Origin: a virus
Virus record (IMG/VR): IMGVR_UViG_3300045988_154481
DNA: 64,000 nt
Direction: 5' to 3' (one strand)
In this document: positions 7,876-47,415 of the stretch, in pieces
Layout of the letters: each line of letters opens with the position of its first letter
How positions within the stretch are numbered: position 1 is the first letter of the stretch
Program-made: the position numbers and the translations under genes
The notes under the pieces: model-generated
Told to the model about the DNA's origin: nothing
The model's database searches: none
What the model saw: the letters and a program-made list of their open reading frames with translations, nothing else

Positions 7876-8406
7876 CGGGAACTCGTCTAAGCGAGTCTAA
7901 ATAGGTCTTTAAGCTTAGAGCGTCTCTGGTCTTTATGACCAGAGGGTAGATGATAGAAATTTAGAATCATAGAAATTTTAAATTTCTTATAAATTTATTA
8001 TTATTATGTTGATATTAGCCCACCTAATTATTAAATGATATGGAAGAACTTTGAATTCGGAAATAGTTATAAAGGTGGGAATGGAGGATATGGGCCAGTT
8101 CCTTTGAGACAGTACCATATTCAAGTATGTTATCTAGTCAATAATATACTTCAGAGAAGGTTTTATACGCTCTGTTCCATTGTGCTATCAAGCCTTAACC
8201 CGACTTAAATTTAGTCTATGGGACTTTGATCGGTCCCATAGGCTCTTATGTGGTAGCGATTGCCGCGTTTTTCTTCAATTTTGTTCATAGTGTTATTACT
8301 CTCTTCGAAATTGCCACATTTTGCAAGATCTGAGGGTTTGGTTGCAATCCAAGAAGCAGAAGAAAGAAAATGGTTTTGTAAACTAAGTATTTCAAGCAAC
8401 AACGTT

Positions 8407-8481
8407 GCTCGGTTCGTCTAGTTGGCCTAGGACGCAGGATTTTCATTCCTGAAATCATGGGTTCGAATCCCATACCGAGTA
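8407..8481 (+). tRNA. tRNA-Glu(UUC)
   Basis: Manual cloverleaf: acceptor gctcggt/accgagt; Glu-type D-arm gtctagttggcctaggac; anticodon stem cagga/tcctg with loop ttTTCat; T-arm atggg-ttcgaat-cccat. No encoded CCA. Confidence 0.7.
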
Positions 8482-8900: not shown

Positions 8901-8974
8901 GGTGGTTTCATCTAGTTGCGTTAGGATACCAGAGTCTCATTCTGGAAACAGAGGTTGGAGTCCTCTAATCACTA
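8901..8974 (+). tRNA. tRNA-Glu(CUC)
   Basis: Acceptor ggtggtt/aatcact; D-arm atctagttgcgttaggat; anticodon stem ccaga/tctgg with loop gtCTCat; T-arm agagg-ttggagt-cctct. Confidence 0.65.
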
Positions 8975-9734: not shown

Positions 9735-9759
9735 GGCCTCTACAAGTTAATAAAGTTTT

Positions 9760-10250
9760 TACTTTATGCCTGCTACGGTTTACGCACGTGTGATTAAATA
9801 GAATTTATAAGGGAGCGAACGCTAATCGTATCGCCACGATCTTAAATCTATTATGAACGCAGGTCGGTGATGGTCACTATCTCAGCCTCGCCACAACGAA
9901 ATACGCGCTGTCTGCTGTTGTTTTCTTTTTATACATAACTTAAATCAACTGGATTAAACCTTGAAGACGGGTAATCCAGAGAGGGAATTAAAGGCAATCC
10001 TTATAAATAAGCCTGTATTTTACTTCTGCCGTGGTGACGCAGATGAATAAGTGTTTGGTTGATTTAAGGTGAATCGTTTTCTTTGATTGTAGGTTCTTGT
10101 CGTAAGAAGTAACCTACGGGTTGTAGAGTTCGGGCTAACAAGCCCTTAAACCTACTTAACCAACTCTACAAGCTTTGTAAATTTAGTCACTTTACAAAGT
10201 GTAGCTCTACCTGCTGAGCGAGTCCTCTTACGGAGTTCGAGGAAGGATGC
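9760..10250. ncRNA. Structured noncoding region, a candidate ncRNA. It has nested helices: ttgtagagtt/aactctacaa enclosing gggct-aaca-agccc, ctttgtaaa-N9-tttacaaag, and ggatta...taatcc.
   Basis: About 700 nt without a credible ORF, local GC about 45%, and many perfect stems read directly from the sequence. Confidence 0.35.
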
Positions 10251-11456: not shown

Positions 11457-11529
11457 AGAGCTATAGTATTTATAGGTAAGTACACTACTCTAAGGAGTAG
11501 AGATAGAGGTTCAAATCCTCTTAGCTCTC
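11457..11529 (+). tRNA. tRNA-like gene with an irregular anticodon arm (6-nt loop ctaagg, or a 6-bp stem with a 4-nt loop).
   Basis: Good acceptor (agagcta/tagctct), D-stem (gtat/gtac) and T-arm (agagg-ttcaaat-cctct). The anticodon stem ctact/agtag leaves only 6 loop nucleotides. Confidence 0.4.
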
Positions 11530-11666
11530 CAAGACTTTTAAAATTTGTATAATGGAAAAAGTGACACAAAATGTACCTGATACAGGTTGGATAGATCCTG
11601 ATGAATTCGTGAATGACCCTTGTATCGAAGCCATAGAGGATGAAGAACCTCTTAACATAGAATAAT

Positions 11667-16878: not shown

Positions 16879-17715
16879 ATGGGGCTCTTTGATGGTTTAA
16901 CTGGATCCGTTCCAGTTCCCACATCTCGTTGTGAGGCTGTGGATGTAATTAACTTGAAAAATCTTAACCAGTCTTTTGATACTCCTAAAGGAAAGTTCAC
17001 TCTCTTTAAGGATTTTAGTCTGGATATAAAAGATTTCTCAGGAGAAGGGCAGTTTATCAGTATCTTAGGAAAGAGTGGTTGTGGTAAATCTCAGCTGCTC
17101 AAAATCATCTCTGGGCTTACACAGCCAGATTCAGGTGAAGTTCTTGTCTATGGAAAACCACAGACAGGAAAAATTCCTATGGTATTTCAGCAGTATTCTT
17201 CATTTCCATGGATGTCAGTTCTTGACAATGTAAAACTTCCGCTCATACTTCGAGGAGTTTCTGATAAAGAAGCTACAGAGAGGGCTATGAAAATGATCAA
17301 AATTGTAGGTCTGGAAGGTAATGAAACTAAATGGGGTCAATATCCTGTGTTATCAGGAGGACAGCTTCAACGAGTTTCAATGGCGCGAGCCCTGGTTGCA
17401 GATAACAAAATTCTTTTGTTAGATGAAGCCACTGGTGCATTAGATATTGTTATGAAACGAGAGATTCAGAACACCATTTTGGATATCTATTATAACGCCA
17501 AATTCGATCCTACAATCCTCAATGTTACACATAGCATTGAGGAGGCTGTGTATCTCTCAAATCGAATTTACATTTTAGCTCCTAATCCCTGTAAAGTTCA
17601 GGCTGTCATTGATGTTAACTTTGACGGTAGGAGAACTGATGCAATTCGTCAAACTGCAGCATTTGCAAATTATGTGAAACAAGTAGAACAAGTAATGTCA
17701 GAAACACATGAGTAA
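16879..17715 (+). CDS. ABC transporter ATP-binding protein.
   Basis: Walker A GKSGCGKS, signature LSGGQLQRVSMARAL, Walker B LLLDEATGALD. Confidence 0.85.
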   Translation: MGLFDGLTGSVPVPTSRCEAVDVINLKNLNQSFDTPKGKFTLFKDFSLDIKDFSGEGQFISILGKSGCGKSQLLKIISGLTQPDSGEVLVYGKPQTGKIPMVFQQYSSFPWMSVLDNVKLPLILRGVSDKEATERAMKMIKIVGLEGNETKWGQYPVLSGGQLQRVSMARALVADNKILLLDEATGALDIVMKREIQNTILDIYYNAKFDPTILNVTHSIEEAVYLSNRIYILAPNPCKVQAVIDVNFDGRRTDAIRQTAAFANYVKQVEQVMSETHE

Positions 17716-18923: not shown

Positions 18924-19130
18924 TTGATGGAGAGACAACTATATAGAGAAGTATGGGTAGGTCCAGGAACAGAACTTATAGAAGTTTCTGAAGAAGAAGT
19001 CAAAGCAGCTAAAGAAGAGTATGCTAAGACAGGCAAATGTGATTGTATCTATATCTATGATGAATTCAGTTACTGTGACTACTATCTAAGGTACTGTGGT
19101 ATCTGTGGAAGCCTTGTTTCATTAATATAA
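18924..19130 (+). CDS. Cys-rich small protein.
   Basis: 68 aa with CDC...C..C...CGIC. Confidence 0.35.
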   Translation: MMERQLYREVWVGPGTELIEVSEEEVKAAKEEYAKTGKCDCIYIYDEFSYCDYYLRYCGICGSLVSLI

Positions 19131-19148
19131 TACCAAGAGAAGTAAATT

Positions 19149-19340
19149 ATGGAAATGCAAGATACACATAAAGGATATTGGCGTATTAATAAGGGTAAGA
19201 CAAAGATTCTGGTGCATCCAGGATCAGCTCATCCTTATAAGCCTACGTCCTTTATTTACAACACAGATCCTCCTTGTAAAAGTAAAGCAGACTTCTACGA
19301 GATCAGAAGGGTTGTCAGATCTCTATATACAGAGGAATAA
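19149..19340 (+). CDS. Hypothetical small protein.
   Basis: 63-aa ORF. Confidence 0.35.
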   Translation: MEMQDTHKGYWRINKGKTKILVHPGSAHPYKPTSFIYNTDPPCKSKADFYEIRRVVRSLYTEE

Positions 19341-20269
19341 CTCTTCGAATATTTTTGCAGTATTGCAGAATAACTACAAGATATGAAGATTCGATTCAAC
19401 AACAAAAAGAAATACTGGTATAAACCAGGGAGAGGATAATAAGTCAAAATCCTGCATTCTTAAGCCGTGTCTCTAATGAGAATTGTAGTTGTAGTATAAT
19501 GGTGGTAAAGGCTAGAGGAAGCTACAACGAAGGCCAACATGATGTGTCTAGATACTTATTATTTTAACAAAGGGCTATATTACCGTATCCAAACCAGAGC
19601 CCTTGAGGCTAAAGGGAGCCATGGATTTTACCATGAGGAAGCTCAAAGCCAACAGTCCACGATATAATGTCTAGAGCGCTGTTAGGGATACACTAATTAG
19701 AGAGGAAGGTCAGACTGGTGTATAGTCGCATATAGAGTATGGCACAGACGAGAGATCTGAATAATAGCCCATTACTAGCACACTCTAATTTTGTAGGCTT
19801 TCAGGCTTAAGTAAAAGACCAAGTGAATCTGTTTAACATCACTAATATCTTAGATATTCTTAAAGGTAATCTTTAGTGGCCGCTGGCCCTCCGTGAGTAC
19901 AGGCTGTGTTTGAAAAGAGGAAGTATAAGAATAGGCAGATACTTGCATACTTGAGAGTCTTTACATCTCCTCAATGACTTGGTAAGAGAGGAGATTTTTA
20001 CATCCCTACACTTTCTCGTGTAGTGCAGACTATAGGAGTTTGATCGCTCCTATAGTCACCGTTTGCTTCAGAGGCTTAAGTTATACTAAGTAAATCTTGC
20101 CTGAATCTAATAAGCTGGAGTGCGAATCTATTCAATGACTTAGTAAAGAGAATAGGATTTTTATATTATATATGGAAGAAATTAAAGAGTATCAAATATT
20201 AGGAATAGGATTTTTAGCGATAGCTATTCTTGCAGGGTTAATCTTAATTCTTATGTAGTTTTTATTTTA
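19341..20269. ncRNA. Candidate large structured ncRNA (ROOL/GOLLD-like ornate RNA) immediately upstream of the tRNA cluster.
   Basis: About 930 nt with no ORF of 60 aa or more on either strand, yet not AT-poor junk. Contains many stems: ctcctc-N15-gaggag, ctataggag-N8-ctcctatag, ggccgctggcc. The motif caatgacttRgtaaaga occurs twice (19969 and 20133). Confidence 0.4.
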
Positions 20270-20342
20270 GGGCCTATAGTTAAAAGGTTTATAACGCACG
20301 ACTCATAATCCTGTATTCCTGGTTCGAGTCCAGGTAGGCCCA
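20270..20342 (+). tRNA. tRNA-Met or Ile2 (CAU)
   Basis: Perfect acceptor gggccta/taggccc; T-arm cctgg-ttcgagt-ccagg; anticodon loop ctCATaa (one mismatch in the anticodon stem). Confidence 0.65.
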
Positions 20343-20361
20343 CTAATTTAAGATATAAGCA

Positions 20362-20655
20362 ATGAATGTAGATAAAGAACATATTATAAGTTATTTCCAA
20401 GATATTATTCATATATGTGAGAAGACGACAACTAGAAATGTTTCTCATCAAATGAGTAATATTAGGATTACTTATAGTTATATTGCTGATAAAGTAAAGG
20501 AGCAATATGGAGAGAACATAGCATATAATAATCTTATGCACGTTGTAGAGCTAGCTTCTGGAGCCACAACTGGCAACATTACTCATAAAGTTGCAACTAT
20601 AAAAGGTTTATGCCGAAGATGTATTGATTTTATTAATGAATACGGATTAGAATAA
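20362..20655 (+). CDS. Hypothetical protein.
   Basis: 97-aa ORF. Confidence 0.4.
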   Translation: MNVDKEHIISYFQDIIHICEKTTTRNVSHQMSNIRITYSYIADKVKEQYGENIAYNNLMHVVELASGATTGNITHKVATIKGLCRRCIDFINEYGLE

Positions 20656-20657
20656 TC

Positions 20658-20915
20658 ATGGGATTTTTAATTTGGATAGTGGCAGGTTCAACAATTCTAT
20701 ATATTTTAACGGTAGATGATTGTGAAGATTTTTTCAGTAAAGTTTTTGTATCTATAATATATTTTAGTATTTTTGTAGCAATAGTTCTCTTTGTTAAGAG
20801 TGATGTAGTGTGTAATATACACATGGAAGCTTATGAAAAGGGGAAGCTTGAGAAAGTATATACTATAAGAGATTCTGATACAACATATAAATGGACCTAC
20901 CGTGAGAAGAATTAG
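20658..20915 (+). CDS. Small membrane protein.
   Basis: 85 aa with an N-terminal transmembrane segment. Confidence 0.4.
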   Translation: MGFLIWIVAGSTILYILTVDDCEDFFSKVFVSIIYFSIFVAIVLFVKSDVVCNIHMEAYEKGKLEKVYTIRDSDTTYKWTYREKN

Positions 20916-26643: not shown

Positions 26644-26724
26644 TGGCCCTGTAAGCAAAGTGGTAAAGCTGCTTATATATTCTAGGTTCATAAGTGTGTG
26701 GAGGTTCGAGTCCTTCCATGGCCA
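26644..26724 (+). tRNA. tRNA-like gene (81 nt), anticodon region irregular.
   Basis: Acceptor ggccctg/catggcc (one mismatch); D-stem agc/gct; T-arm ggagg-ttcgagt-ccttc. A candidate anticodon stem gctta/taagt would enclose a 16-nt loop. Confidence 0.3.
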
Positions 26725-26843
26725 CAAATTCTTTACAGTTTTACAATGAATAGGTAACATACAGCAAAGTAAATGGTTTAAGCAAAATTTCTCTTTTAAT
26801 TTAGCGAAAAGGTTCAAGTCCTTATTGTTACCTAGTTTTAGGA

Positions 26844-28952: not shown

Positions 28953-29024
28953 GAGGTATTGGTGTTAGTGATAGCATATGTGACTTCCAATCACAAGGGG
29001 AGAGTTTGAATCTCTTATACCTCT
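28953..29024 (+). tRNA. tRNA-Gly(UCC)
   Basis: Acceptor gaggtat/atacctc; anticodon stem tgtga/tcaca with loop ctTCCaa; T-arm gagag-tttgaat-ctctt. Confidence 0.65.
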
Positions 29025-47309: not shown

Positions 47310-47399
47310 GCGCCTGACCCGAGGCGGGGGGGAGGTCTTCAAAACCTCTATGCTGTTGGTCCATCTTCAGCCCTGTGGGATCGTTACCTACCAGGCGTG
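47310..47399 (+). tRNA. Opal suppressor tRNA (anticodon UCA), 90 nt, with a 26-nt variable arm, a non-canonical T-loop (atcgtta) and G73.
   Basis: Acceptor gcgcctg (47310-16) pairs with caggcgt (47392-98). Anticodon stem gaggt/acctc (47332-36 and 47344-48) with loop cTTCAaa; the anticodon TCA is at 47339-41. T-arm gtggg-atcgtta-cctac. Variable-arm helix gctg...cagc. Confidence 0.6.
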
Positions 47400-47415
47400 C
47401 AAATAAGAAGTAAAT

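Follow-up and report, generated by a model that had tools for sequence, protein, structure and literature searches.

The tRNA cluster of phage T4 includes two stable RNAs, C and D (species 1 and 2), which are co-transcribed with the cluster and processed out; their function is unknown. ROOL (RF03087) and GOLLD (RF01998) are non-coding RNAs of 500-800 nt that are borne by phages, lie beside tRNA genes, and have variable peripheral domains. Both reportedly use loop-loop contacts, as seen by cryo-electron microscopy. In the human gut, no viruses are more abundant than the crAss-like phages, and to our knowledge, almost nothing has been reported about their non-coding RNAs. Here we describe positions 19341-20269 of a viral sequence of 64,000 nt (IMG/VR record IMGVR_UViG_3300045988_154481); we will call this whole 64-kb stretch the window. 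We favor, with some reserve, the view that 19341-20269 is a mosaic island in the tRNA region of a crAss-like phage, with two micro-ORFs (open reading frames), RNA modules, and two tandem paralogues that are small stable RNAs from the tRNA operon. The paralogues, units 1 and 2, apparently represent an undescribed RNA with no counterpart in Rfam. An earlier, sequence-only reading had proposed that the stretch is a large structured non-coding RNA, beside tRNA genes, and of the ROOL or GOLLD type. Our analysis agrees with it on structure and location, assigns the structured RNA to the + strand, and disagrees on size and family.

In behaviour, the closest analogy to the units would be T4 RNAs C and D, as small, stable, non-tRNA RNAs inside a phage tRNA cluster. 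The likeness is one of behaviour alone: we do not expect any relationship in sequence or structure, and we know of no loop-loop pseudoknot or exchangeable hairpin in the T4 RNAs. The locus also resembles ROOL and GOLLD in being non-coding, phage-borne, located beside tRNA genes, and variable in its peripheral domains, and a pair of covarying heptamers would be the counterpart of their loop-loop contacts. In contrast to ROOL and GOLLD, the units are ~100-205 nt, they belong to a chain of autonomous modules with micro-ORFs, and they do not match the ROOL or GOLLD covariance models. Three traits are unusual: the oversized loop of a terminator-like hairpin is linked to another loop further 5'; a slot exchanges unrelated hairpins among nearly identical phages; and the units recur just 5' of a tRNA(CAU) or of a transfer-messenger RNA (tmRNA). 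None of the papers in the collection that we searched contains these sequences, broader literature searches found nothing specific to such RNAs, and a review of the Crassvirales that covers tRNAs, introns, and recoding mentions no RNA of this type (PMC10136315).

Among phages in GenBank, the only relatives of 19341-20269 are in cr111_1 and cr108_1, which are Crassvirales from human faeces. Closer relatives are found in human-gut contigs of 100-178 kb, from IMG/VR and from metagenomes. In span and in tRNA load, they are consistent with the large tRNA-rich crAss-like groups that have been described (PMC10136315). We will refer to related loci by L numbers; L001 is cr111_1 and L002 is cr108_1. 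The two units are laid out as follows:

19796..19999, + strand: unit 1 (covariation across 32 homologues)
19796-19802 with 19953-19959: P1 of unit 1, GGCUUUC/GAGAGUC
19804-19806 and 19809-19812 with 19941-19947: P2 of unit 1, bulged, GGC-UU-AAGU/ACUU-GCC
19818-19824: PK-a of unit 1, the P2-loop strand ACCAAGU
19828..19939, + strand: V1, exchangeable hairpin domain within unit 1 (comparison of homologues)
19965-19972 with 19988-19995: T, the 3' hairpin of unit 1
19973-19987: loop of T in unit 1, with PK-b (ACUUGGU) at 19977-19983
19995-19999: U-run of unit 1
20065..20162, + strand: unit 2, paralogue of unit 1 without V1 (unit-1 covariance model)
20065-20071 with 20115-20121: P1 of unit 2
20072-20075 and 20078-20080 with 20096-20102: P2 of unit 2
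20085-20091: PK-a of unit 2, ACUAAGU
20127-20133 with 20150-20156: T of unit 2
20134-20149: loop of T in unit 2, with PK-b (ACUUAGU) at 20138-20144
20158-20162: U-run of unit 2

In the fold that is supported by comparing homologues, each paralogue is closed by a 7-bp helix (P1), followed by a bulged helix (P2) with a heptamer (PK-a) in its loop. In unit 1 only, the P2 loop also contains the exchangeable V1 hairpin. Next comes the 3' hairpin (T) with its loop of 15-16 nt, whose central heptamer (PK-b) pairs with the heptamer in the P2 loop to form a kissing or pseudoknot helix, and then the U-run. The 17-nt motif that the sequence-only reading had noticed is indeed present twice (19972-19988 and 20133-20149), and in both units it is the loop of the hairpin that precedes the U-run. 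If up to 3 mismatches are allowed, the motif has 6 matches in the window versus 4.7 expected, which is chance level; the only two good copies are these two hairpin loops.

To measure covariation, we used 32 distinct sequences of unit 1 with V1 removed (an earlier set had 20), and as controls we used 500 shuffles and sliding of the partner strands. Standard pairs are formed in 96.8% of the cells of the alignment. Thirteen of the 29 pairs have changed on both sides, as compared to 4.2±1.5 pairs in the shuffles (0/500 reach 13) and 1-4 pairs if the strands are slid. In the pseudoknot helix, 99.1% of cells are paired and 4 of the 7 pairs show compensatory changes, and 7 of the 8 pairs of the T stem are compensatory. 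The changes in P1 are mainly one-sided (among G-U, G-C, and A-U), with one compensatory pair. Thus, the refuting outcome of no conserved structure in homologous regions did not occur, as the structure covaries there.

The heptamers occur as five perfectly complementary pairs (PK-a/PK-b): ACCAAGU/ACUUGGU in unit 1 of the window, ACCAAAU/AUUUGGU in cr108_1, ACUUAGU/ACUAAGU in L144, L145, and L226, ACUAAGU/ACUUAGU in L165 and in unit 2, and ACUUGGU/ACCAAGU in L166 and L184, where the heptamers are swapped along with new P1 and T stems. This is complementarity between distant sites that is kept by compensatory change, as expected of a kissing loop or pseudoknot. The cognate duplexes have energies of -5.4 to -7.7 kcal/mol. 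Our first model paired CAAGU of a conserved block (block D) with ACUUG after V1; we rejected it because that pairing is broken in L002 and in L144/L145, where the loop pairing is compensated.

With a covariance model trained only on unit-1 sequences, unit 2 (20062-20163) scores 39.6 bits, with an E value of about 4e-6, and no further copy is detected in the 64 kb. Relatives of unit 2 come in 15 distinct versions, and nearly all of its 28 pairs are standard.

On the opposite strand, A-C would replace the G-U pairs that are seen in P1, in T, and in two other elements described below (C2 and the G hairpin), and U-runs lie 3' of the hairpins on the + strand only. Because of these G-U pairs and U-runs, we place the RNAs on the + strand, which is the strand of all of the tRNAs and genes. 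The linkers between modules are 3-5 nt long and AU-rich, which leaves no room for promoters. A search for Bacteroides-type promoters gave two matches to TAnnTTTG, versus ~0.85 expected, without any -33 element, and neither match is conserved. Given the short linkers and the lack of a conserved promoter, co-transcription with processing is more likely than separate transcription units.

We predict that the units are transcribed on the + strand along with the neighboring tRNA genes and that they are freed as discrete, nuclease-resistant RNAs of ~100 and ~205 nt. Their 3' ends would form at a leaky intrinsic terminator, that is, the hairpin and its U-run. If the hairpin is directly followed by a tRNA or tmRNA, RNase P would form the 3' end by cutting right behind the hairpin. 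The loop-loop helix would lock the 3' hairpin in a compact fold.

Such abutting genes are found in several relatives. In L144, L145, and L177, a tRNA(CAU) begins 4 nt past the hairpin of the unit, and in L203, a tmRNA begins ~4 nt past the hairpin of unit 1. (This phage tmRNA, at 105-461 on the - strand of the locus, encodes the tag AKNTIRKMANKVMSLAPQRAEVAMAA followed by a stop, and a tRNA(CAT) comes next.) At abutting loci, the U-run is short or interrupted: UUUAUG in L144/L145/L177 and L203, and UUUUUCG in L226. In L184, the tRNA lies 42 nt past the hairpin, and the full U-run is kept. Directly 3' of the unit in L226 (~1190-1270), there is a tRNA-shaped sequence, GGCCGUC...GGGUUCGAGCCCCUGGACGGCUA, that is not called by ARAGORN; it may be an aberrant tRNA-like gene. 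Neither of the units of the window is directly followed by a tRNA: the closest one lies 107 nt 3' of the U-run of unit 2, with an ORF between. RNase P would set a 3' end beside a locked hairpin in L144/L145, L177, and L203, and in this respect the units resemble MALAT1/mascRNA, where RNase P cuts ahead of a tRNA-like element and the resulting 3' end is protected by structure. MALAT1 is eukaryotic and is protected by a triple helix, whereas here we infer the logic.

More broadly, 43 of 74 distinct unit contexts include a downstream tRNA that is no more than 1.5 kb away; in 41 of these 43 it is a tRNA(CAT). The downstream tRNA(CAT) genes occur in at least six architectures, and most belong to three related sequence types, which presumably resemble tRNA-Ile2. 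The link to tRNA(CAU) may reflect function or merely conserved gene order.

The main rival to small stable RNAs is a role as regulated terminators that act in cis. Like intrinsic terminators, the units have a stem that contains G and C (8 bp in unit 1 and 7 bp in unit 2) with UUUU(U) right after it, in almost every copy and on the + strand only. Unlike intrinsic terminators, which have short loops (3-8 nt), they have conserved loops of 15-16 nt, and neither 3' hairpin was called by a terminator scan. In a conditional terminator, the loop-loop helix would stabilize a poor terminator (an 8-bp stem with a 15-nt loop), and a factor that occupies the heptamer, or a change of fold, would tune read-through into tRNA(CAU), tmRNA, or a small ORF. 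The loop, which is far above the size of ordinary terminator loops and so was missed by the scan, speaks for this idea, as with such an oversized loop, stability should depend on the tertiary pairing. The U-run after the hairpin in most copies and the prevalence of tRNA(CAT) as the next tRNA (41/43 contexts, across at least six architectures and three tRNA sequence types) point the same way. However, we did not find any alternative (antiterminator) pairing, and the candidate competitor CAAGU/ACUUG is lost in L002 and L145, where the heptamer has changed. Also, what lies downstream varies: it can be unit 2, a protein gene, another non-coding module (module X, described below), a tRNA, or a tmRNA. 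Beside abutting tRNAs, the U-run is degraded, so regulated termination would not be possible there. Inherited gene order could account for the link to tRNA(CAU), and AUG in the loop becomes AUA in some loci, regardless of the downstream tRNA. Overall, we consider a conditional terminator to be unlikely.

We also rejected a T-box-like reading, in which the AUG of the loop would be read beside tRNA(CAU). The loop triplet (AUG or AUA) is independent of the downstream tRNA, the complementarity of ACCA with UGGU is lost in other versions of the heptamers, and there is no match to T-boxes in Rfam. In every variant, the loop reads AUG-NNN-NNN-UAA (for instance, AUG ACU UGG UAA at 19976-19987 and the corresponding 20137-20148), apart from a few loci with AUA instead of AUG. 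This amounts to a three-codon mini-ORF across the pairing heptamer, which may be a coincidence.

The two hairpins with U-runs divide 19341-20269 internally, and the rest of the stretch is a mosaic as well. Its other features, and the adjoining tRNA, are:

19384..19440, + strand: micro-ORF of 18 codons, MKIRFNNKKKYWYKPGRG followed by a stop (conserved from ATG to stop)
19441..19562, + strand: block B, a spacer found only in the window (no homologue; z = +1.24 for its minimum free energy, or MFE)
19563..19683, + strand: module C1, three hairpins, present in some relatives only (RNAalifold)
19684..19795, + strand: module C2, a self-closing domain, AAUUAGAG/CUCUAAUU, then a U-run (RNAalifold)
20006..20023, + strand: V2, a small variable hairpin, CUACAC/GUGUAG (relatives)
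20028..20057, + strand: G hairpin, an 11-bp perfect stem with loop UUUGAUCG (13 variants in relatives)
20172..20258, + strand: ORF of 28 codons, MEEIKEYQILGIGFLAIAILAGLILILM followed by a stop, a small hydrophobic (membrane) peptide (coding-type substitutions)
20270..20343, + strand: tRNA(CAU), called as tRNA-Met (ARAGORN and Rfam, 62.9 bits)

We compared this layout to those of relatives by aligning it with cr111_1 and cr108_1 and by using block-wise BLAST against ~60 related loci from crAss-like phages. Short conserved blocks are 92-100% identical and have a fixed order, with spacings that range from tens of nt to ~1.4 kb. Blocks A, D, F, and G hold their order in relatives, while whole modules come or go. 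In L137-L139, the blocks are split over two places in the genome, and in other phages (L144/L145), the unit stands alone directly 5' of a tRNA.

The hairpin within unit 1 is the most variable part. Among the first 24 homologues, V1 had 16 distinct sequences, of 28-135 nt, that belong to 8 unrelated types; L039 provides a ninth type. With the metagenome loci, there are 30 distinct sequences of V1 (two with mis-set boundaries). Its flanks are ~100% conserved. V1 is closed within 1 nt of the junction by a helix of 4-8 bp in 6/8 types and of 2 bp in 2/8. Similarly, at the position of V2, relatives have other self-closing hairpins, of ~65 to ~430 nt. The G hairpin varies by compensatory changes at four positions of the stem (GGAG/CUCC to AGAG/CUCU or GAAG/CUUC, and GAC/GUC to GGC/GCC), and its G-U pairs are valid on the + strand only.

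This mosaicism bears on the proposal that a single RNA of ~930 nt, about 19341-20269, with a variable periphery, belongs to the large ornate type. The location beside phage tRNA genes, with tRNA(CAU) at 20270, is as in ROOL and GOLLD. Conserved core blocks in a fixed order with variable inserts would also fit, as would the tRNA that lies within a variable part in L039; a tRNA inside the variable part has reportedly been seen in GOLLD. In contrast to a large conserved core that is inherited as a unit, the homologous stretches range from ~0.5 kb to >2 kb, and blocks are inserted, deleted, swapped, and relocated independently of each other, including the unit that stands alone in L144/L145 and the blocks at two places in L137-L139. 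The stretch is interrupted by two internal elements with a hairpin and a U-run and by two conserved micro-ORFs. There is no enclosing long-range helix: the sole candidate, of 10 nt, lacks conservation, and one of its arms lies within the protein gene upstream. The whole region also has an unremarkable folding energy (MFE z = -0.49).

Nor is there any match to this type in Rfam. Of the 4,227 families in Rfam 15, only tRNA matched 19341-20269 at the gathering score, and relaxing the threshold to E<=10 for 19100-20400 added just chance-level matches. None of the models for ROOL, GOLLD, HEARO, or group I or II introns matched, so these families, as well as known ribozymes, T-box, and packaging RNA (pRNA), are unsupported. 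A HEARO element or intron is also at odds with the absence of any ORF of 60 aa or more and of any split gene, and the stop codon of the 18-codon ORF is conserved. In 17 related loci, Rfam identified tRNAs only, apart from a weak match to RAGATH-33 in L061 (834-943; 31.7 bits versus a gathering score of 120; E = 0.005). That match sits in a 400-nt insert between modules that is absent from the window. We consider a single ROOL- or GOLLD-like RNA to be essentially excluded.

Instead of encoding functional RNAs, the blocks could be cassettes that act at the level of DNA or regulation, such as recombination hot-spots, cassettes of terminators and promoters, or elements like the PeSL of T4-type phages, whose transcripts have no function of their own. 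Flanks that are ~100% identical surround wholly different inserts, which indicates that homologous recombination is frequent at these blocks. When 20 kb were used as a query, only the 354 nt at 19940-20293 matched cr111_1 at the megablast level, and L198, whose heptamers are mismatched, is clearly a recombinant. Like the units, PeSL are conserved stem-loops that border shuffled segments in a hyperplastic region. PeSL differ in that they flank small protein genes, come with an early promoter, and exist as many dispersed copies. The motif of the units occurs just twice in the 64 kb, the inserts between blocks are mostly non-coding hairpins instead of genes, we found no conserved promoter, and there is a long-range pairing. 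A function at the DNA level would not explain why a loop is complementary to a site 150 nt upstream, why there are five versions of the heptamers, or why the G-U pairs suit one strand. We regard DNA-level cassettes as improbable.

The proximity to tRNAs raises another alternative, that the unit is a new self-cleaving ribozyme, or a helper of RNase P, and acts in the 5' maturation of the tRNA or tmRNA directly behind it. It would then be a counterpart of the theta ribozymes. Gut phages do have small structured RNAs directly beside tRNA genes, namely ribozymes (theta, which are like those of hepatitis delta virus, and pistol). The compact pseudoknotted fold is consistent with this idea, as is the distance of just 4 nt that, in several phages, separates the end of the unit from a tRNA or tmRNA. 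Also, the window encodes a full-length pistol self-cleaving ribozyme (7881-7951, + strand; 72.5 bits versus a gathering score of 34.5 in Rfam). It lies in an ORF-free gap (7876-8210), ~450 nt 5' of the tRNA-Glu at 8407. However, the units do not resemble any known class of ribozyme in Rfam, they sit upstream of tRNAs instead of downstream, neither unit in the window abuts a tRNA, and RNase P alone is enough for 5' maturation. We view this alternative as very improbable.

Another variation is that the heptamers pair between molecules, head to tail, to form rings or chains, comparable to the rings of phi29 pRNA or to the cages of ROOL and GOLLD. The assembly would be a scaffold made of RNA only that displays V1 hairpins, and the rapid swapping of V1 among near-identical phages might reflect an arms race: for example, V1 could be a decoy for a host defence that targets RNA, or for an enzyme, linked to tRNA(CAU), that modifies or cleaves tRNAs. 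There is a parallel in the pRNA of phi29, a small phage-encoded RNA in which covariation among related phages has kept two loops complementary to each other. The pairing of pRNA is intermolecular and forms a ring on the packaging motor, while the pairing of the units could be intra- or intermolecular. We rejected pRNA itself as an identification, as there is no match in Rfam and the relatives are Crassvirales, which is not a packaging context of the phi29 type; also, we know of no crAss-like phage that uses a packaging RNA. If the two units were to form separate assemblies, their heptamers should not pair with each other, and this expectation is only partly borne out. PK-a of unit 1 pairs weakly with the loop of unit 2 (-1.1 kcal/mol), and PK-a of unit 2 pairs with the loop of unit 1 as well as cognate heptamers do (-5.4 kcal/mol). 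So, the heptamers of the two units are only partly distinct. We regard this scenario as quite unlikely. If it is true that the RNAs act on tRNA biology or host defence, this would bear on why phages carry arrays of tRNAs.

Several points weigh against our preferred explanation of small stable RNAs. The transcript ends, the stability, and the processing of the units are all things that we infer. If the hairpins with U-runs terminate efficiently, then the modules that lie further 3', and the tRNA, would depend on promoters of their own, and we found none. The inner half of P2 (AAGU/ACUU) varies in just 1 of the 32 sequences, and the pair is broken there. All of the homologues that we found belong to a single clade of gut crAss-like phages, and they are >=90% identical outside of the variable parts. 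Because of this, many of the apparent covariations may reflect a few recombination events instead of many independent substitutions. Folding energies are no better than those of shuffled sequences, except for 20001-20062. Some parts of the island add little to the argument: the evidence for C1 and C2 as RNA modules is modest, and there is none at all for a function of block B.

The folding energies run counter to one of the earlier claims, which was that the stretch is highly structured. In the thermodynamic sense it is not: besides the value for the whole stretch, which is level with shuffles, the MFE z scores are -1.05 for unit 1, +0.50 for unit 2, +1.24 for 19441-19566, -0.85 for 19563-19683, and +0.77 for 19684-19795. 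Only 20001-20062, which includes V2 and the G hairpin, stands out (z = -5.7). Our support for structure therefore comes from the comparison of homologues and not from folding energy. The other parts of the observation held up. The hairpins that had been pointed out are present (ATCTCCTC/GAGGAGAT at 19965-19995, GACTATAGGAG/CTCCTATAGTC at 20028-20057, and GGCC-GCT-GGCC at 19879-19889), the tRNA-Met begins at 20270, and the base composition differs, with a modestly higher GC content (0.38-0.43 versus about 0.30-0.36 in the flanks). There is no ORF of 60 aa or more on either strand of 19341-20250, which is the longest gap in the window that is free of both tRNAs and such ORFs. As the earlier reading had also reported, no gene that contains TGA codons (genetic code table 4) spans the region. 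All six frames of 19341-20269 contain TAA, TAG, and TGA, with 3-13 copies of each kind, and so we ruled out any hidden recoded gene, whether under table 4 or with TAG read through.

Calling the stretch ORF-free was correct for ORFs of 60 aa or more and overlooked the two conserved micro-ORFs, which make up ~140 nt of 19341-20269. The 18-codon ORF has 22 distinct nucleotide versions in relatives, behind at least 4 unrelated upstream contexts. Its conservation begins at the ATG and stops at the stop codon, and its substitutions are synonymous or conservative (CGA/AGG/AAG, TTC/TTT, and TAC/TAT). In L126, the KKKYRYKPGKI tail of this peptide is fused to an upstream gene. The 28-codon ORF shows synonymous changes (ATT/ATC, GAG/GAA, GGG/GGA, and TTA/CTA) as well as conservative ones (A/V, I/L, and L/I), and a paralogous version of its C-terminal motif is found in another small ORF in L074. 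The small ORFs that flank 19341-20269 had no matches among the PHROG annotations. More generally, "non-coding" gaps in the tRNA-rich regions of phages can be chains of small RNA modules and micro-ORFs, which changes how such gaps should be annotated.

Among the lesser modules, C1 is 91-98% identical in ~10 loci, and RNAalifold predicts 31 pairs, of which 3 show compensatory changes. C2 is found in relatives with or without C1; 29 pairs are predicted, with 1 compensatory change and several one-sided changes to G-U that keep the pairing on the + strand only. Block B (19441-19562) had no homologue in any of the related loci or in IMG/VR. A 16-nt stretch near its start (19444-19459) is 88% identical to the anticodon and variable region of the tRNA(CAU) (20303-20318), which may be a remnant of a tRNA or may be due to chance. 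In L001 (4530-4553) and L002 (2240-2263), the tRNA(CAU) gene is reduced to its first 24 nt, followed by a jump to the homologue of window position 20658 onwards, which marks a recombination or deletion breakpoint inside the tRNA gene.

Some relatives contain another conserved non-coding module of ~200 nt, which we call module X. It lies 3' of the G hairpin in L041, L053, L061, and L067, and 5' of the unit in L144 (~2340-2545) and L145 (~2280-2485). Its copies share the motifs GAGUGAUCAU, CCAGAUGUU.CACUGG, and CUCCCAAUAAGAAA, and the module is closed by a terminal stem with a U-run. Module X has no match in Rfam and is absent from the window. No other copies of the unit or of the relatives' modules were found elsewhere in the window. 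There are four other tRNA-free gaps of 512-845 nt without any ORF of 60 aa or more (1850-2694, 998-1513, 9735-10246, which has a GC content of 0.41, and 58076-58667). According to the covariance model, the unit is absent from these gaps, which may contain further RNA modules or micro-ORFs.

The window encodes 26-28 tRNAs, all on the + strand, according to ARAGORN and Rfam. Two of these were identified by Rfam without a counterpart from ARAGORN (8901-8974 and 28953-29024, both on the + strand), and one of the tRNAs from ARAGORN (11457-11530) has an undetermined anticodon of 2 nt. Just 5' of the tRNA-rich segment, an ORF of 278 aa (16879-17715, + strand) has a match in PHROG 293, which is annotated as the ATPase of an "ABC transporter" (E = 6e-56). 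Two tRNAs on the + strand have the anticodons CTA (26645-26725, called as Pyl) and TCA (47310-47400, called as SeC). These are likely to be suppressors of TAG and TGA, which suggests that stop codons are recoded in part of the phage. In L061, the Trp codon of the 18-codon micro-ORF is TGA, which fits with a TGA-suppressor tRNA.

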